In this document: positions 40,410-47,652 of the stretch, in pieces
Position numbering within the stretch: position 1 is the stretch's first letter
How the letters are laid out: every line of letters starts with the position of its first letter
DNA from: Acidimicrobiia bacterium
GTDB taxonomy: Bacteria; Actinomycetota; Acidimicrobiia; Acidimicrobiales; Bin134
DNA length: 64,000 bases
Reading direction: 5' to 3'
NCBI GenBank assembly: GCA_009843865.1
Contig: VYCQ01000023.1
Coordinates: 64,320-128,319, forward strand
Program-made: the position numbers and the translations under genes
The notes under the pieces: model-generated
Databases searched by the model: none
Told to the model about the DNA's origin: nothing
The model's input: only the letters and a program-made list of their open reading frames with translations

Positions 40410-40847
40410 TTGATTATCTTGCATATCCGAAGATATCTTTTTGCATTTCTTGGTGTGTCCGCTGTGATGCTTGGCGCGCTTAGCTACATGAGCGCGTCTT
40501 CACAGAGCATCTACCCTGCTGAAGTAGAGCGTTGGCGTGCCTTGGTGTTAGAGGTCTTCCCTGAAGACGAGGTACACGATGTGTTGTCGGTGATGGAATG
40601 CGAATCATACGGTGATCCATCGGTGCGTTATATGGAGGAATGGGGACAAGAATCCGTTGGCTTGTTACAGATCAACGAAGGTTGGCTCACAGGTTGGGGA
40701 GATGAAGAATGGGCAGTGCGAGGCCATGACGGTCAGTCAGTGAATCTAGAAGACCCCTCTACCAACCTGCGTGCTGCGGCCTTTATTCGACATTACGAAA
40801 GGGTCAATGAAAAAGACGACTGGTCACAGTGGGCTTGTCAGCCTTAG
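40410..40847 (+). CDS. secreted lytic transglycosylase (SLT/lysozyme-like domain)
   Basis: Signal peptide (RRYLFAFLGVSAVMLGALSYMSASS) and the SLT pattern E-C-E-S-Y-x-D-P ... S-V-G-L-L-Q-I-N. TTG start. Confidence 0.65.
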   Translation: MIILHIRRYLFAFLGVSAVMLGALSYMSASSQSIYPAEVERWRALVLEVFPEDEVHDVLSVMECESYGDPSVRYMEEWGQESVGLLQINEGWLTGWGDEEWAVRGHDGQSVNLEDPSTNLRAAAFIRHYERVNEKDDWSQWACQP

Positions 40848-40868
40848 TTAACCGGAGATAATGGATAA

Positions 40869-41483
40869 ATGCGGTGGTACACATCTGATCATCACTTTGG
40901 ACATTTCAATATTATTGGGTACAGCAACCGGCCGTTCATTAGCACAGCCGAGATGGATCAAACCATGGTAGAGCGCTGGAACGACGTTGTTGGCGATGCG
41001 GATGAGGTCTGGATTTTGGGCGATTTGGTGATGGGTAAACGTAAGCGAGGGCTTGGTAAGTATGTTGCCAAGCTCAAGGGCCGCAAGATTTTTGTACCGG
41101 GAAATCATGATCGATGTTGGCAAGGACATAAAGGGTTCAAAACGAAGCGTGTGGACTTTTATGAGATCGGTTTGATTCACGAGATCATTGATAACCCCGA
41201 GGCTCATACTGTGGCAGGTCGTAGGGTGCTGCTCAGCCACTTTCCTTACAGGCAAGGTTTAACATATCAGGAGAAGTTTGCCGAGTGGCGACCCATTGAC
41301 ACTGGCGACTGGCTCTTGCATGGCCATGTCCACGCTTCATGGCAACAGCAAGGCCAGCAAATCAATGTTGGCGTGGATGCATGGAATTTTGCACCTGTGT
41401 CGGAGGACTCCATCGCCGCAATGATTCAAGCAGGAGCTGCTGAAGTCCCTTGCCTAAAACATGTGCTAGCGCATAAGACATAG
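40869..41483 (+). CDS. calcineurin-like metallophosphoesterase
   Basis: MPP motif series SDHHFGH, GDLV, GNHD and HGHVH; 204 aa. Confidence 0.8.
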   Translation: MRWYTSDHHFGHFNIIGYSNRPFISTAEMDQTMVERWNDVVGDADEVWILGDLVMGKRKRGLGKYVAKLKGRKIFVPGNHDRCWQGHKGFKTKRVDFYEIGLIHEIIDNPEAHTVAGRRVLLSHFPYRQGLTYQEKFAEWRPIDTGDWLLHGHVHASWQQQGQQINVGVDAWNFAPVSEDSIAAMIQAGAAEVPCLKHVLAHKT

Positions 41484-41515: not shown

Positions 41516-41544
41516 TTGATTACTGAAAATTATAGTTATATACT
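41516..41544 (+). promoter_or_regulatory. sigma-70-like promoter candidate
   Basis: TTGATT, a 17-nt spacer, then TATACT. Lies inside the most AT-rich spacer of the window and ends 90 nt upstream of ATG 41634. Confidence 0.4.
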
Positions 41545-41633: not shown

Positions 41634-42638
41634 ATGGGCATCGCCCGCTTTGTTGTATACCCGTTTGCGTTGTTGGTCGTTTGTGCGGCGGGATGTGGTT
41701 CTGCTGAATCTTCTTCTGTGGCTCAAGATTCTGTTGAGATGGCGCTCCCCGCACTTTCGGCACCGCTTACTGGTGTGCCTGGCTTTACCGGTGTCTCCCA
41801 AATCAGCGCCGCGACAGCAGGGTCGCTTGGTAAAGAGCTAGCTAAAACCTCTGCACGGGTATCATCAACTCCTACTCCTAATGTTGTTGAGCTACAACGA
41901 TGGGCCCGCAACAGCGCTTTTTATGCGTTTGGCGATGATGTTTTGGGCTGGGATGAACAGGGTTGGCCGTTGGTGCGCAAGATCCCTGTTGATCACGAAG
42001 GATTGGAAGAGCTGCGCTATCGGCATGGTCACCAAGATGGCAGCATTCCAGACAATGTCGACACCCGCTTATGGCTGCAAGAGTGCCTCAGCGACCGTTT
42101 CAGTGCCGTCGCGGGGTCTTCCGAAGCTGTTCAAGGCACCTTTGCAGCTCAAGGTCTGTATCTTTGCCTTGGCGCTTTGGTTCATTTAGAGCATCTCCGA
42201 GCTAGATATTGGTGGAGTGAAGCGGGTTTGGCTTGTGTTGGCAGCGCAGCTATCAACTATGCCTTTCATGGGGAGGATGCTCCAAGACCTCTAGCAGTCT
42301 GCCCTTCTCAAGGATACAACCCCACCGCGCCACGCCCTTCGGGTTGGCTGCGCCAACAATGCCTTCGCGTTGTTGGCGATCATCTCAATCCTGCTTATCC
42401 CAGCGGCTCTGCTGATGGAGCCTTGGGGCAAGTGCTGCCATCTTGTTGGCAACCGCTGTTAGACACAGCGGAAGCTCATGCGAAAAACAACGCCGAGTTA
42501 GGGTTACCCGACAGTCCGCATGACTGCTTTCATGCGGTGCTCGGTTATGTGTGGGCACGTCAATCTGGATTGGATAGCCGAGCACCCAATGATCTCTATG
42601 TGGGATGTGGATATAGCGCTTCTGAGGCCTTGCGATGA
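41634..42638 (+). CDS. Cys-rich putative lipoprotein, function unknown (first gene of Tad-like operon)
   Basis: Signal peptide plus lipobox (LLVVCAAGC), followed by eight further Cys by my count. RBS-like AGAGAGGG lies upstream. The stop overlaps the next ATG (ATGA). Confidence 0.55.
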   Translation: MGIARFVVYPFALLVVCAAGCGSAESSSVAQDSVEMALPALSAPLTGVPGFTGVSQISAATAGSLGKELAKTSARVSSTPTPNVVELQRWARNSAFYAFGDDVLGWDEQGWPLVRKIPVDHEGLEELRYRHGHQDGSIPDNVDTRLWLQECLSDRFSAVAGSSEAVQGTFAAQGLYLCLGALVHLEHLRARYWWSEAGLACVGSAAINYAFHGEDAPRPLAVCPSQGYNPTAPRPSGWLRQQCLRVVGDHLNPAYPSGSADGALGQVLPSCWQPLLDTAEAHAKNNAELGLPDSPHDCFHAVLGYVWARQSGLDSRAPNDLYVGCGYSASEALR

Positions 42639-43933
42639 GCCCCAAATCGCGCTCAGATGCAACACGTCTGCTGATTGCCATGTTGCTGATGGTGTTTTTG
42701 TTTGTGGGGTTCGCTGCAATCAACCCTGAAGTGCGCGAGGTGTTTGCACATGAGCAGCATGAGTGGATTTCAGTTAGTGGCGTTGGCGCGACATGTCCTG
42801 TGGACGTGAGCAATTGCCGGGTTACTTGGACACATGTGAACTTTTGGACTCACTACGAAAGAGTGATCCCTAGTGTTTGTGCCTTGACAACCATTGGCAA
42901 TTGTCAACCGGTTGTCATAACGCGCAATGCAACAAGTTCTTGTCGTAATACCAGTAATTGTGGACATGGCCCTCACAGCAGCACGCCTAGAGTGACTGGT
43001 CCGGGCACTTGGACTGTTTGGAAAGGGCATACAGATGTTGATCATAAATGGAGTGGCCGGAGACATCAGAAGGTAGCTCACCAGCATCTTTCCCCAACTG
43101 AGCCCAATAATCCACCCCCCACAGCACTCCCCACACCTCAACCTGAGCCATCGGTAAATCCTCAACCTCATTGCATGACCGATGGCATCCCCAACAATTG
43201 TCCTAGGCAGAAAAAAGATGATGATAAAACCAACAAGCCAAACCCCAAGGTTGCTTGTAGCACCTCTTGGAGCAGCGCAACAGATAATCAGTTACGCAGC
43301 GCGTTGCGCTGGGAATCAATCGTACCCTATCCGAGTGGTTTTGCTACCCCGCATCATCTTGAGGTGCCCGGCGGACGTTGGTTTTTGACCGCAGCATCAA
43401 GCCCGCTTAGCGCAGCACGGCATTGGGTGGCGCTCAAATCTGGTGCAAACCTGAACGTGTCGGAGTCCTCTGCTAGTGGGTGTTTGTGGACTGCCACTCA
43501 TGTTGGGGTATTTCTGCGCGAGCTATTGGCCCATGACAGCGCTGATCTTGCTGTTCTGGTTTCCCCCGGTAATACGGCAGCAGCCACGCAGGCGCGTCAA
43601 GCAGCTTCGTTGTGGCAGAACCTGAGTTCGCAACGCAAGCAATGGTACACCGATGCCTTTACGAGAAACGACCCGGCCACTGTTTGGTGTTCTTCTGCTG
43701 ATCTCCCTACATGGACCAGCCCGCTTAATAAAGTGCTCTCGTTGTCCAGCACATGGAGTGCCAAACATGACCATTGTCGTTGGGTAATACCCCGTCAGGG
43801 TTTTTGGCAGTGGCAGCTTGTTATTAGGTACACCTCCAATCAGGGTGATTCCTATACCCATGTGGTGGCTGAGGATTTGTCATGGTTTCGTGAGCCCGAC
43901 GGATATCTCACCCAGCAGGTGACGTTGTGGTAG
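42635..43933 (+). CDS. membrane-anchored Cys/Trp/His-rich extracytoplasmic protein, function unknown
   Basis: N-terminal TM (LLIAMLLMVFLFVGFAAI) and four C-x5-8-N-C loops. A Pro-rich linker (PNNPPPTALPTPQPEPSVNPQP) precedes a Trp-rich C-terminal domain. Coupled on both sides. Confidence 0.55.
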   Translation: MSPKSRSDATRLLIAMLLMVFLFVGFAAINPEVREVFAHEQHEWISVSGVGATCPVDVSNCRVTWTHVNFWTHYERVIPSVCALTTIGNCQPVVITRNATSSCRNTSNCGHGPHSSTPRVTGPGTWTVWKGHTDVDHKWSGRRHQKVAHQHLSPTEPNNPPPTALPTPQPEPSVNPQPHCMTDGIPNNCPRQKKDDDKTNKPNPKVACSTSWSSATDNQLRSALRWESIVPYPSGFATPHHLEVPGGRWFLTAASSPLSAARHWVALKSGANLNVSESSASGCLWTATHVGVFLRELLAHDSADLAVLVSPGNTAAATQARQAASLWQNLSSQRKQWYTDAFTRNDPATVWCSSADLPTWTSPLNKVLSLSSTWSAKHDHCRWVIPRQGFWQWQLVIRYTSNQGDSYTHVVAEDLSWFREPDGYLTQQVTLW

Positions 43934-44565
43934 CTGAGACCAGCAAGGCTCTTAGATCTGTGACTGCTTGGCCTGTGAGCTTGCGCTGGCGTCTGCTGGC
44001 AGTATTGCTGGTGTTGGCAGCAACTACCGCGGCCATTTTTTTGCTGTCATTAGAACGAAATGGGCAAGCAGAAATTTTAGTAGTTGCTACCACTGAGCGC
44101 TGGCTGCAAGACCATCCGGTAGGCGAGCACACGTTGATTCCAGTGCCTGCTGGCTTGGCTTCATTGTTTGTACAGCCTGACGATTTAAAGAACAAGGCTG
44201 CTTCTGTAGATATACCAGAAGGCAGCCTTGTGGCAGCACAAATGCTGCGTTCTCACCGCAGCAGTGACAATGAGCGTGCTACTGCTTTGATGGCTTTTGT
44301 TGCAAGTGCCAGCATGTGGCCTAGCCCTGGCCCAGCCGCAGGTGACCCAGCCGTGTTTGCATCATCTCCGGGGGGCTGCGCTACCGCTATTCAAAGGCTT
44401 GTAGCAGTTGAGGATGAAGGGGCTGACATGAAGGTCACCTTAGAGGTTACGCCTGAGTTGGCCGAGGTGTTGGCCGATCGCGAGTGGTGGATATGGCAAT
44501 CCCCTCCCAGTGGTTGGCCTCAATGCGAAATCGTTTTAACTGACAGCGGCGAGGGTGAGCAGTAG
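43927..44565 (+). CDS. SAF-domain / CpaB(RcpC)-like pilus assembly protein (putative)
   Basis: N-terminal TM (WRLLAVLLVLAATTAAIFLL), then ILVVATTERWLQDHPVGEHTLIPVPAGL...IPEGSLVAAQML, which resembles the CpaB SAF region. Sits directly before the ATPase. Confidence 0.5.
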   Translation: MVAETSKALRSVTAWPVSLRWRLLAVLLVLAATTAAIFLLSLERNGQAEILVVATTERWLQDHPVGEHTLIPVPAGLASLFVQPDDLKNKAASVDIPEGSLVAAQMLRSHRSSDNERATALMAFVASASMWPSPGPAAGDPAVFASSPGGCATAIQRLVAVEDEGADMKVTLEVTPELAEVLADREWWIWQSPPSGWPQCEIVLTDSGEGEQ

Positions 44566-46133
44566 TGCTGTTGGTGGTTGCTGATCGCTGGCTGACAGAT
44601 AAATGCAAGGCGCACCTCATTGATGAGGTTATGGAAGGCATCGCTTCGGTGGCTTCAGGTGTAGTGTTGGCCCTCTCCCCCGCCGAGGTAGACAGTGCTT
44701 CTGCTACCGGCCATCCCACCGTGTTGGTAATGAAAGATGATCAACCGGAGTTTCGTTTGGAGTCCGCGGTGGCTTCAGCGGCTGCTGTGCTGCGAATAAC
44801 CACGGCCGAGAGCACCGACATACGTTCGCAGCTTCGCTTGGATTCTGGCAGCCGTCGTGCCACGCCCATCGTTTCGATAGTTGTGAGCGATGAACCAGTC
44901 GAATCGCAGCGTTTTCGTCGCCAAAAAGTGGTCACCTTGTGGGTGTCGACAGAGCTAGCTAGAACCGATCGTCGCCGCTTGCAACGGTTGGGGCGTCGTT
45001 TGTCTTGGACCGCTATAGCTCCTCGACGTCTTGATCCTTTAGATCGAGAGACGCACCTTTGGTCGGCCTCTCACGCTGCACAAAGCCGCTTGAACGATTT
45101 GTTGGAGGAATCAGGGGTAGAGGAGTTTCAGATCAGAGGTGGTGAGTGCATGATCGTGCATCGTGCTGAAGGGCAGCGCGAAAAACGTAAATCACCGTTT
45201 AACAGCAGTGAAGAGCTGATTGAAACTGCACGGCATCTAGCCAGCTTTTCGGGTGGACATCCGCAGCGCTTTGACATGTTAGATACCCGTTTAGATATTC
45301 GTCTAGGTAAGAGATGGCGGCTTCACGCCGAAGCGTTCATGTGTCAACCGCCCACCATGGTGTTGCGCTCGAACATGGCGGGAAAAACCACTTTGGCCGA
45401 TCTCAACGTGGCGAGTGCTCCGCTACAGCAAATCTTGGTGGGCGCGGTGTCGGGCAAAGTCCGAGCCAATGTGGTGGTGGCTGCGGCTATGGGGGGCGGG
45501 AAGACCACGTTATGTCAGGCCCTTTTGGCAAAGGTGGATGGATCAGAACGCATCGACACCATCGAAGATACTCCTGAGCTGCGCCTTGCGCAATACAACA
45601 TTCATTCCAATACCTACGAGCGACTTACACGAGATGCCAACAACGATGGTGTGGGCAAGCTCTCGATGAGCGACCACATTCGTGATGCCAAGCGGGCCAA
45701 TTCTTCCAAGCTTGTTATCGGCGAAACTAGAGGTGAGGGCACCTTAGCCCTGCTAGATGCTATGAGCAGCGGACTGAACGGCTGTTTGGTCACGCTGCAC
45801 AGCCAGCCTGGGCCAGGGGTTTTGGCCAAGCTGCTCTCATACGCATGCAGCGAGGGAGCCGATGCTCGTTTTGCTCGCCAACAAATCGCCATCGCCGTCC
45901 ACTTGTTGGTGTGGATGGGACGTAATGAGTTAGGCGAACGGGTGATCTCTGATGTGTCTCAGATTGTGAGCTACGACGACCGTAACGACTCCATCAATAC
46001 TCGCTGCTTGTGGGCATTACAGGCAGGACAGCGTTGGGCTTCACCGGTGGGCAGACCTCATGGTCTCATTGAGCGTTTGTATGAGTCGGTGGTAGATAAC
46101 TCGATGGCAACCACCGAAGCGATAGCCAAATGA
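44565..46133 (+). CDS. TadA/CpaF-type secretion ATPase (VirB11/T2SS-E superfamily) with long N-terminal region
   Basis: Walker A AMGGGKTTL, Asp box IDTIEDTPEL, Walker B KLVIGETRG and His box LVTLHS. About 185 aa precede the conserved N1 domain. Confidence 0.85.
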   Translation: MLLVVADRWLTDKCKAHLIDEVMEGIASVASGVVLALSPAEVDSASATGHPTVLVMKDDQPEFRLESAVASAAAVLRITTAESTDIRSQLRLDSGSRRATPIVSIVVSDEPVESQRFRRQKVVTLWVSTELARTDRRRLQRLGRRLSWTAIAPRRLDPLDRETHLWSASHAAQSRLNDLLEESGVEEFQIRGGECMIVHRAEGQREKRKSPFNSSEELIETARHLASFSGGHPQRFDMLDTRLDIRLGKRWRLHAEAFMCQPPTMVLRSNMAGKTTLADLNVASAPLQQILVGAVSGKVRANVVVAAAMGGGKTTLCQALLAKVDGSERIDTIEDTPELRLAQYNIHSNTYERLTRDANNDGVGKLSMSDHIRDAKRANSSKLVIGETRGEGTLALLDAMSSGLNGCLVTLHSQPGPGVLAKLLSYACSEGADARFARQQIAIAVHLLVWMGRNELGERVISDVSQIVSYDDRNDSINTRCLWALQAGQRWASPVGRPHGLIERLYESVVDNSMATTEAIAK

Positions 46134-46945
46134 CGGTGCAGTTGTTGATCGTAGTATTTGCCGGGTTGTTATTGATGGTGCCTATTTGGTGGCCCACAGG
46201 TAGCGAAAGCCCTTCAGAAATGCTGTGGCGAAGCGTGATGTTGGCACCGCAGCGCTCTGTGCCAGTTGGCAGCGTTGTGGCTGTGGTGGCTTTGTTGGTT
46301 GGTTTGTTAGCAGGACTGTTGTTGTATGGCCCGATCATCGGGCTTGCAACCTTGGTGCTTACCGGCATTTGTGTTGTGGCGATTGCGGTGCAGTTTCGTT
46401 CGAGGCGTAGTTTGCAAGAAGCTGAGCAGCTAGCTCAGCTAACCAACAGCTTGGCCAACCAAGCCTTGGTAGCTCCAACCGTTGTGCAAGCCATTCAACA
46501 TTCCGCTCATTTGGTTGAGGGGCGAGTGGGCATCGCTGTTAAGCAGCTAGCTGCTGAATGCGAAACAGGTGGTTTGGTGGAGGCCTCCAATCGTTTTGCC
46601 AGCACCATTCAGAGACCTATTGCTGAAATGCTCGCAACCGTGCTTATAGAGGCTTTCCGGGGAGGTGCTCAGTGGGTGGGGTTGGCTAGCGTGTTAGCCG
46701 AGGAAGCCGCTCAATTAGCCGATACTGCTCGCTACTTTCACCGTCATGTGGCTGTGATGATGCCGCAGATAGCGGTCACTGTGGTGCTAGCAATAGCTAT
46801 GATAGCCATAACCGGCTTTGCCGCTAAAGATGTGGGTGAATGGCTTGGTTCACCGGTTGGACAGCAAATGCTTTTGGTGTTGGCCTTGTTATCTAGCGCG
46901 ATTTGTGGACGCATTTTGGCACCTGCTTGGAAGACCAGCCAATGA
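46130..46945 (+). CDS. TadB/TadC-like platform protein (T2SS-F family)
   Basis: N- and C-terminal TM helices flank a helical cytoplasmic domain. ATGA-coupled to the ATPase gene. Confidence 0.62.
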   Translation: MTVQLLIVVFAGLLLMVPIWWPTGSESPSEMLWRSVMLAPQRSVPVGSVVAVVALLVGLLAGLLLYGPIIGLATLVLTGICVVAIAVQFRSRRSLQEAEQLAQLTNSLANQALVAPTVVQAIQHSAHLVEGRVGIAVKQLAAECETGGLVEASNRFASTIQRPIAEMLATVLIEAFRGGAQWVGLASVLAEEAAQLADTARYFHRHVAVMMPQIAVTVVLAIAMIAITGFAAKDVGEWLGSPVGQQMLLVLALLSSAICGRILAPAWKTSQ

Positions 46946-47652
46946 TGTTTTTGGTTGGATTTTCTGGCGTGGCAGCCATAGCGATGCTGTTGGCCACCCC
47001 AAAGCCAAGCCGCCATGTCGCCGTGCAGGCCGCTGCTATGGGGTGGACCCCTAATCGCATCGTGGTTGTAGCTTGGACGATAACTTGCGTTGGTGTGGTG
47101 GCGGGGCTTTTGACAGGCCGCTCTGTGGGGGGTTGGGGTGCCAGTTTAACGTTGGCCACGGTATCGGGAACATGGCTACCACACCTGCTGCCAGCAATCA
47201 TTCGTCGTTTGGTAGCTGAGGCTTATCGTCGTCAGCGAGATCAGAAAATATTAGAGTGGATGCGCAAGCTGCGCTTGTTGACATCTGCGGGTCAACCTAT
47301 CAACGCTGCGGCTGTCAACTCGGCATTGACGGTATCGGGCCGCGCTTTTACCGTGGCTCAAGGTGCTATCGGAGCAGCGCTGGAGGCTGGACGTGATCCT
47401 CTGCCTGCCGTTAGCGGGGCCATTGCAGGTTCGCCAGCAGAGCCTTTGCTGGCTTCTGTGGTGGCTGCGGAACGAGCGGGGGCAGCTTCTTCGGACTTGT
47501 TGGATAAATCGTTGGCTAGATCAGTACGTACCCTGGAATCGGAGTGTCGCTTAGCCATAGACAAGCTGAGCCGGGCCATTGGCACAACGGTGACCTTGGT
47601 ATCAGCAATTGCTGGCCTCGCGGTGATGGCATCGGTGATCTTCGTGTTGTGA
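46942..47652 (+). CDS. TadB/TadC-like platform protein (T2SS-F family), second copy
   Basis: Same architecture as the previous gene, with the T2SS-F-like segment LLTSAGQPINAAAV...AAERAGAASSDLLDKSL. ATG 46942 overlaps the previous stop (ATGA). Confidence 0.62.
   Translation: MMFLVGFSGVAAIAMLLATPKPSRHVAVQAAAMGWTPNRIVVVAWTITCVGVVAGLLTGRSVGGWGASLTLATVSGTWLPHLLPAIIRRLVAEAYRRQRDQKILEWMRKLRLLTSAGQPINAAAVNSALTVSGRAFTVAQGAIGAALEAGRDPLPAVSGAIAGSPAEPLLASVVAAERAGAASSDLLDKSLARSVRTLESECRLAIDKLSRAIGTTVTLVSAIAGLAVMASVIFVL

Follow-up and report, generated by a model that had tools for sequence, protein, structure and literature searches.

We analysed two adjacent genes, here called A and B, on a 64,000-nucleotide stretch of DNA from an Acidimicrobiia bacterium (contig VYCQ01000023.1 of assembly GCA_009843865.1, positions 64,320 to 128,319 of the forward strand). 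The whole stretch is referred to as the window (C11:64320-128319 of the window's genome, G000), and positions are those of the window unless a genome or locus handle precedes them. A and B stand at the head of an operon for a Tad-like (type IV filament) system, and the original prediction, made from the DNA letters, took them for Cys-rich exported parts of that machinery. As judged from gene order and sequence features, A and B are a two-protein extracytoplasmic module of this system, in which the C-terminal domain of B is the constant element, and gene A together with the 5′ part of B is exchanged among relatives.

The two leading genes and their products

The two genes and their parts are as follows.

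41634-42638, + strand: gene A, ATG start, 334 residues, with a GAGAGGG Shine-Dalgarno-like stretch upstream
41634..41696, + strand: A residues 1-21, signal peptide with lipobox; Cys21 predicted to be lipidated (pattern match)
41697..41870, + strand: A residues 22-79, low-complexity linker, poorly conserved, variable in length and sequence
41871..42638, + strand: A residues 80-334, predicted all-alpha head; 8 Cys invariant; motifs YWW, LPSCW, DSPHDCxHAxLGYVWARQ
42635-43933, + strand: gene B, 432 residues, 12 Cys
42635..42748, + strand: B residues 1-38, signal-peptide-like segment ending VFA/HEQ (the slash marks the presumed cleavage point)
42749..43090, + strand: B residues 39-152, variable Cys-loop beta domain, type N1 (N2, N3 or N4 elsewhere); long beta hairpins, predicted local distance difference test score (pLDDT) ~80
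43091..43246, + strand: B residues 153-204, Pro-rich linker and fourth Cys loop, pLDDT below 50; the right cassette boundary lies near its 3′ end
43247..43933, + strand: B residues 205-432, conserved C-terminal domain with 4 invariant Cys and the terminal sequence ...WFREPxGYLxQQVTLW

Protein A begins with MGIARFVVYPFALLVVCAAGCGS. Its lipobox, A-A-G-C at residues 18-21, has the form L-x-AGC-GS, which as a pattern is kept in 19 of 20 aligned homologues; other proteins found at the A position have lipoboxes ending in VAC, TAC, SAGC, AASC or AAGC. By the lipobox criterion (a signal peptide ending in [LVI][ASTVI][GAS]C) A is a predicted lipoprotein of the Lgt/Lsp substrate type. Two of its 10 Cys fall in the signal and lipobox region and the other eight are invariant (C151, 178, 201, 223, 243, 271, 298 and 325); there are 9 Trp. 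The head, ~250 residues long in the alignment of the 20 homologues, was modelled by AlphaFold2 (AF2) as all-alpha with pLDDT ~90, and residues 1-78 scored below 50. Foldseek found no relative of this model at E ≤ 0.001 in the PDB (best E 1.4) or BFVD. Pfam and NCBIfam gave no domain match for A, TadE, TadG and vWA models included, and TPR was absent both from the Pfam matches and from the structures matched by Foldseek. A role as a lytic enzyme was dropped, its sole basis being a Foldseek match to a designed lysozyme (E 1.6, TM 0.11-0.18).

Homologues of A form 26 clusters among 5.8 billion proteins, and every match is strong. The named ones belong to 'Candidatus Poriferisocius', a genus within Acidimicrobiia, or to unclassified metagenome-assembled genomes (MAGs). 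A profile search for distant relatives in a word-indexed database (E ≤ 1) returned none outside the family.

Eight of the 12 Cys of B lie in four C-x5-8-N-C loops (CPVDVSNC, CALTTIGNC, CRNTSNC and CMTDGIPNNC), and four invariant ones in the C-domain (C208, 283, 352 and 381). The sequence bears out the original account of both open reading frames (ORFs), the signal peptide with lipobox, the Cys counts and the four loops, with one correction: the Pro-rich linker, placed there after all four loops, runs between loops 3 and 4. A hydrophobic N-terminal segment was likewise described correctly. As an alternative to its reading as a membrane-anchoring helix, a cleaved Sec signal peptide is at least as likely, because a small-x-Ala/His boundary is kept (VFA/HEQ in B; ALA/H, AQA/H and similar in homologues) and because distant relatives of B have classical signal peptides with AxA sites. 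We also considered whether the His at the mature N-terminus could belong to a copper 'histidine brace' of the LPMO kind; N3-type proteins lack this His, there was no other support, and the idea was set aside.

The C-domain of B, ~230 residues long, is its conserved part, with 74% mean column identity and ~12 invariant Trp. B homologues form 38 clusters, and in their alignment the N-domain differs in one subgroup. An exhaustive profile search with the C-domain found 37 clusters among 1.84 billion proteins. In the distant clusters (E 1e-14 to 1e-4) the domain is C-terminal in proteins of 230-1526 residues, some of which carry Cadherin-like or Calx-beta domains or Cys/His repeats N-terminal of it. 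Pfam and NCBIfam produced nothing for B except a sub-threshold Ams1 jelly-roll (E 0.007), and no PilY1/PilC, TadE, Tad, TadG or vWA model matched. The AF2 model of B is of moderate quality (mean pLDDT 66); it is not a propeller, and its last strand, ...QQVTLW, is predicted to be beta. Foldseek against the PDB gave nothing at E ≤ 0.001 and nothing below E 0.03, and a jelly-roll, capsid-like fold was rejected (Foldseek probability ≤ 0.2). Profile searches of PDB sequences with the family alignments, that of the CpaB-like protein encoded next to B included, returned linker noise only. The B C-domain is thus a rare new domain. The earlier statement that neither protein contains a known domain agrees with the Pfam and NCBIfam results, and Foldseek on the AlphaFold models assigned neither A nor B to a known unrelated family.

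Every Cys in the A head and in the domains of B is invariant. In crude whole-genome gene calls divided by a simple signal-peptide rule, exported-like proteins had an even number of Cys in 91 cases and an odd number in 31 (75% even), against 47% even for cytoplasmic-like proteins (Fisher p = 6e-9). Because of this bias, structural disulfides appear to be formed outside the cytoplasm in this lineage, and we infer, as had been proposed from the even Cys counts, that A and B are disulfide-stabilised. A disulfide-forming DsbA or VKOR homologue, whose presence had been suggested as a check, did not turn up: VKOR was missing from the window genome and from all 40 genus genomes, and Thioredoxin_4 and DSBA from the window genome, the control genomes matching as expected in each case and DsbB (PF02600) not being searched. 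The lineage thus clearly makes exported disulfides without a recognisable VKOR or DsbA.

The filament operon and its distribution

The operon has the following further features.

41516..41544, + strand: candidate promoter, TTGATT-17 nt-TATACT, by consensus match, in the AT-rich spacer 5′ of A
43927..44565, + strand: CpaB/RcpC-like protein with a transmembrane (TM) helix, a weak SAF-like region and 2 invariant Cys
44565..46133, + strand: divergent ATPase, TadA/CpaF-like; its N-terminal extension of ~170 residues is specific to the clade
46130..47652, + strand: TadB-like and TadC-like platform proteins, assigned by position, TM-rich sequence and same-position orthologues
47773..49228, + strand: short pilin-like protein (67 residues) and three minor-pilin-like proteins, in an order kept in all operons

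The first genes are chained by overlaps. The A and B frames share ATGA at 42635-42638 (gcgATGAgc), as originally described, B and the CpaB-like gene share 7 nucleotides (GTGGTAG, 43927-43933), and the ATPase start falls on the last base of the CpaB-like stop codon (TAGTG, 1-nucleotide overlap at 44565). In a scan for promoters and terminators, promoter-like sites of the region were no commoner than in shuffled sequence, and nothing beyond the site at 41516 rose above chance.

Within the genus, the B C-domain is found in 39 of the 40 genomes and in 35/35 of the high-quality ones. All 31 genus loci that were fetched have the same gene order, and in most of them the B stop codon overlaps the CpaB-like start. 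Alone this is weak evidence for a link between B and the machine, because the flanking genes are syntenic at genus level too. Across the class, the domain occurs in 2 of 178 sampled genera. Five distant relatives of B could be placed on contigs; one (L088) belongs to an orphan pair and four (L050, L051, L089 and L090) to operons. In these four, the B-like gene (E 1e-7 to 1e-13, ~26% identity) is preceded by a lipoprotein gene in 4/4 and directly followed by a CpaB-like gene for ~205 residues (133 as called in L090); then come an ATPase gene, its product 55% identical to that of the window over the full length, and genes for TadB, TadC, a pilin of 66-81 residues and three minor pilins. The chromosomal flanks are wholly unrelated. 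The L051-type operon is carried by the genome G518, which belongs to a different family within the class. In one Poriferisocius genome, G279, a second, paralogous operon of this type (L049; G279:C1:3205500-3225400) has an ATPase 50% identical to that of the window and, at the B position, a protein of 1009 residues with 43 Cys.

Since the same order recurs in four distant lineages with unrelated flanks, B is tied to the machine genes. The C-domain is encoded almost exclusively just upstream of a CpaB-like gene and an ATPase gene of this clade, which supports the assignment of A and B to the filament operon; most homologues did not prove to lie away from Tad-like loci, and none was assigned to a known enzyme family. 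These comparisons show, at the level of gene content, a conserved layout consisting of genes for a lipoprotein, a B-like protein, a CpaB-like protein, an N-extended ATPase, TadB, TadC, a short pilin and three minor pilins, with the B C-domain as signature component and constant element. By the same measure, the system is a distinct and narrowly distributed Tad-like kind in Acidimicrobiia. Ahead of the lipoprotein gene, the L051/G518 operon contains four extra genes (L051:5553-7928), three of them with TadE-like hydrophobic N-termini.

The operon proteins match known families to different degrees. The ATPase meets the Pfam T2SSE model above cut-off (3.3e-15) and has the Walker A sequence GGGKTT, which places it with TadA/CpaF. 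Its best NCBIfam match is TIGR03819 (1e-38), at 133 bits far under the family cut-off of 373 bits, and among 120 genomes of the class the closest match outside the genus is 33% identical (range 33-37%) and covers the C-terminal 300 residues only. T2SSF matches the 249-residue second platform protein below cut-off (2.8e-4; 21.3 bits against 25.2), and Pfam gave no T2SSF match for the 271-residue one. For the CpaB-like protein of the window there was no Pfam match; a weak SAF match appeared in 2/7 orthologues (best E 4.8e-4). Its orthologue alignment has invariant C151 and C200, an invariant WP-x-PGP-x-x-G and an end of the form W-x-SPP-x-GWP-x-C. The 67-residue pilin-like protein starts with MQSAIVQMILIVVAVAAAAIV, has neither a leader nor the Flp G/XXXXEY motif, and gave no Flp_Fap match in Pfam even at E ≤ 5. 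No Pfam Secretin match was found in A, B or any other operon protein, no TPR or other known envelope fold was recognised in A or B, and the operon has no CpaE/TadZ-like gene.

Several other genes were seen in and around the window. Between an mpaB-like gene and A (40410-41483) lie a metallophosphoesterase gene and a small gene resembling SLT_3 lysozymes (E 5.5e-5, under the cut-off); neither is present at the equivalent place in L008, L009, L041, L042 and L043, so the two do not count among the system's conserved genes. After the minor pilins (49253-50491), a highly charged, apparently cytoplasmic protein of 412 residues without a Pfam match is encoded; every Poriferisocius locus has a counterpart (294-474 residues), and since the operons of L050, L051, L089 and L090 have none, it is probably outside the system. 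The single A24 prepilin peptidase gene is at G000:C11:13954-14295, ~50 kb upstream of the window, and two more T2SSE-type ATPase genes are on another contig (G000:C35:15637-16533 and G000:C35:87856-88707). The window genome itself (1.79 Mb, 98% complete, 53% GC) is a reduced, low-GC member of the genus. Congeners mostly have genomes of 3-4 Mb, with a GC content of 62-70% at this locus; the nearest relatives, G295 and G112, have 48-55% GC there. That relatives live in sponges is taken from source names only.

A cassette exchanged at the head of the operon

The constancy of the layout does not extend to what is encoded at its 5′ end. L009, whose ATPase is 81% and CpaB-like protein 53% identical to those of the window, encodes at the A position an unrelated 422-residue lipoprotein with ~15 Cys and a DUF2510-like motif, and its B has a different N-domain. 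Overall, the A position is occupied by at least four predicted lipoprotein heads that are mutually unrecognisable or barely related (A″ is distantly related to A, with an hhalign probability of 90%); A is thus not among the conserved components of the machine. The type of the lipoprotein goes with the type of the B N-domain in 32/32 genus loci: A with N1 in 17/17, A′ with N2 in 6/6, A″ with N3 in 8/8, and, in the single locus of its kind (1/1), a lipoprotein carrying PASTA (E 1e-8) with N4.

The cassette also evolves rapidly. Pairwise comparison across the genus gave mean identities of 84% (ATPase), 66% (B C-domain), 62-64% (CpaB-like protein) and 50% (A); in a near-identical strain pair, the ATPases are 99.8% identical, the B proteins 93% and the A proteins 81%. 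On the ATPase tree the distribution of cassette types needs 5 changes, against a minimum of 3, with switches between the sister genomes L063/L067 and L065/L066 (each support 100/97). In three pairs, DNA homology ends at the A start codon or a few codons from it and returns 210-264 codons before the B stop codon, close to the start of the C-domain. Because of these limits, the variable unit corresponds to gene A plus the 5′ part of B between conserved flanks. Together, the alignments and the tree show A and the N-terminal part of B as a co-switching, fast-evolving cassette with sharp boundaries that is apparently exchanged within the genus.

Related pairs also occur away from the operon. Some congeners, unlike the window genome, have orphan copies of the C-domain. 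Such copies share ~30-36% identity with the one in the operon, and no Tad gene lies within 9 kb of them. In L044, an A-family lipoprotein gene overlaps (ATGA) a gene for a B-like protein of the N1 type. In L046, L047 and L048, a Cys-rich lipoprotein of 480 residues abuts a B-like protein of 795-857 residues that contains five Cys/His-rich repeats of ~55 residues each. The pairs lie in island-like regions, with an IS256-type transposase gene (recognised by eye) and nucleotidyltransferase-like genes nearby, and the surroundings of L044-L048 suggest a recurrent mobile island. Each orphan pair of L044-L048 is preceded by a gene for a conserved protein of ~230 residues (…SPTEAATYAAQAPRSGWRIWKNAAGETLEELRWRL…). 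The lipoprotein and its B-like partner (L046:12006-13448 and L046:9432-12005; likewise in L044, L045, L047 and L048) share a Cys-bracketed, His/Asp-rich motif, C-x-P-x-x-VHG-x-PH-x-T-x-P-x-D-x-(D/N)G-x-G-…-C-x-Y-x-G-…-HTH, which resembles a calcium-binding DxDxDG loop.

Possible roles and known systems

By analogy with known pilus tips, we see about an even chance that the cassette is a polymorphic, exposed recognition or adhesion module, coupled to the filament or to the machine by the B C-domain, with the lipoprotein head as cognate partner of the B N-domain. B would be exported by Sec, probably with its signal peptide cleaved, and its C-domain would dock onto the filament tip (the minor pilins) or onto the CpaB-like part, possibly via the last beta-strand, ...YLxQQVTLW. 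The A head would be held away from the membrane on a disordered tether that spans the wall and, together with the variable region of B, would make up an exposed surface that determines specificity in adhesion or recognition. The A head and the B N-domain probably bind each other, because A type and N type always travel together; A may serve B as its cognate receptor or as a partner for parking or loading. Several observations weigh against this interpretation. The operon pilins lack a recognisable Flp leader, and B is encoded at the operon head beside the CpaB-like gene, whereas pilY1 and tadG are found among minor pilin genes. Distant homologues have 8-50 residues beyond the terminal strand, which is thus not always at the extreme C-terminus, and the model of B is only moderate in quality. 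The orphan pairs might function without a filament, and physical linkage of adjacent DNA could explain the association of A type with B N-type.

A more specific proposal is lock-and-key self-recognition, in which the B N-domain borne on the filament would bind the matching A head on neighbouring cells of the same type. If true, adhesion, or pairing for mating or exchange, would be confined to cells with the same cassette, which would explain why the many species of a single symbiont genus that reside together fall into discrete types whose parts switch jointly; we consider it quite improbable.

Among the roles originally listed, that of an adhesin or variable surface module has gained from the swappable cassette and the orphan pairs, and that of a stoichiometric conduit in place of secretin/TadD-type parts has become less likely. 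In the latter case, B and the lipoprotein would form, with a CpaB-like ring, a fixed collar or conduit across the wall, replacing the secretin RcpA, RcpB and TadD in a single-membrane cell. Classical tad loci have the order rcpC-rcpA-rcpB, which the position of B beside the CpaB-like gene mirrors, and at most loci the B stop codon overlaps the CpaB-like start. The B C-domain has diverged about as fast as the CpaB-like protein (66% against 62-64% identity), the long linkers of A and B could span the wall, and one A-position lipoprotein has a PASTA domain, which binds peptidoglycan. A fixed part, however, is not expected to have its heads swapped for unrelated ones, to range from 230 to 1526 residues with cadherin-like and Calx-beta inserts, or to recur as orphan pairs in islands, and neither Pfam nor Foldseek recognised a secretin, TPR or known envelope fold; we regard the conduit as unlikely.

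A secretion role fares worse. If the Tad-like machine were a piston of the type II secretion kind, B-like proteins would be its substrates, the C-domain their tag and the lipoprotein a chaperone or release factor. One substrate-like gene in the operon with further C-domain paralogues elsewhere, the varied N-terminal payloads, and a C-domain distribution as narrow as that of the ATPase clade would fit such a scheme. However, B-like proteins already have Sec signal peptides, a single-membrane cell has no second membrane to cross, no payload contains an enzymatic or toxin domain, and 230 residues are a lot for a sorting signal, which together make export as cargo improbable. The orphan pairs, with no Tad gene within 9 kb, and the genus-wide synteny of the neighbourhood, by which co-occurrence is partly inherited, could also mean that A and B are an independent surface pair, for example wall-associated adhesins, that shares only a promoter with the filament genes. 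Against this, the same order recurs in four distant lineages whose flanks are unrelated, and again in the paralogous operon of L049; the ORF overlaps with the CpaB-like gene are conserved, and the C-domain is nearly absent where the ATPase clade is lacking. We therefore find such mere co-transcription very improbable.

How the surface of single-membrane type IV filaments is customised is poorly known, and there are essentially no data for uncultured, host-associated Actinobacteria. In the searchable literature, where the genus name itself is rarely mentioned, we found no description of the lipoprotein-B module, the B C-domain or the A fold. The A head, modelled with confidence, is a Cys-rich helical fold for which no structural relative was found in the PDB or BFVD. 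The combination of lipoprotein, B-type protein with the new C-domain, CpaB-like protein and extended ATPase offers a locus signature for a distinct Tad-like system, and the C-domain can serve as a probe for its modules in metagenomes. The cassette is a testable candidate for recognition of host, surface or kin by sponge symbionts.

The 'helicase/secretion neighbourhood' cluster of TIGR03819, which in M. tuberculosis we take to be Rv3654c-Rv3660c, has an ATPase, TadB, TadC, a short pilin and small TadE-like proteins in the same order. Unlike that cluster, the operon analysed here has no CpaE/TadZ-like gene and has instead a CpaB-like gene, the ATPase extension and the lipoprotein-B pair; to our knowledge, none of these three has been described for the TIGR03819 cluster. 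With the RcpA secretin, RcpB and the TadD pilotin, A and B share an extracytoplasmic location, as predicted here, and genes beside an rcpC/cpaB-like gene, and on both sides there is one all-alpha lipoprotein. In contrast to them, A and B have no secretin domain or TPR fold, the A head is swapped in sister species, and the actinobacterial host has no outer membrane in which a secretin would be piloted.

Closer parallels are found at pilus tips. A C-terminal beta-strand fastens PilC/PilY1 and CpaL/TadG to minor pilins at the tip (PMC13533445); in PilC/PilY1, the tip adhesins of type IVa pili, it lies at the extreme C-terminus and completes the sheet of a PilK-like minor pilin. B ends in the invariant, strand-predicted ...QQVTLW. 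PilC/PilY1 (and MshQ; PMC13533445) resemble B, as predicted here, in being large proteins exported by Sec whose N-terminal part varies and whose C-terminal domain is conserved, and more than one paralogue per machine is possible. B differs from them in having no sequence or fold similarity and no beta-propeller, in being encoded at the operon head by the CpaB-like gene, in the constant presence of a cognate lipoprotein, and in its single-membrane host. Tad tip complexes (TadE/TadF/TadG and CpaL, PMC13533445; Kil Tip1-4, PMC12075869) are pilin-like, with a TadE/G-type N-terminal helix processed by prepilin peptidase, whereas A is a predicted lipoprotein and B has what appears to be an ordinary signal peptide. 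In the large minor pilins TadG and CpaL, a vWA-type domain usually comes after this helix. Since B does not qualify as a member of any of these families, its likeness to PilY1 and to Tad tips is analogy, not homology. The organization has parallels: the Kil Tad pilus of Myxococcus has interchangeable tip complexes, Tip1-4 (PMC12075869), and in both cases alternative modules would expose variable domains, extra modules lie at other loci, and modules differ among relatives.

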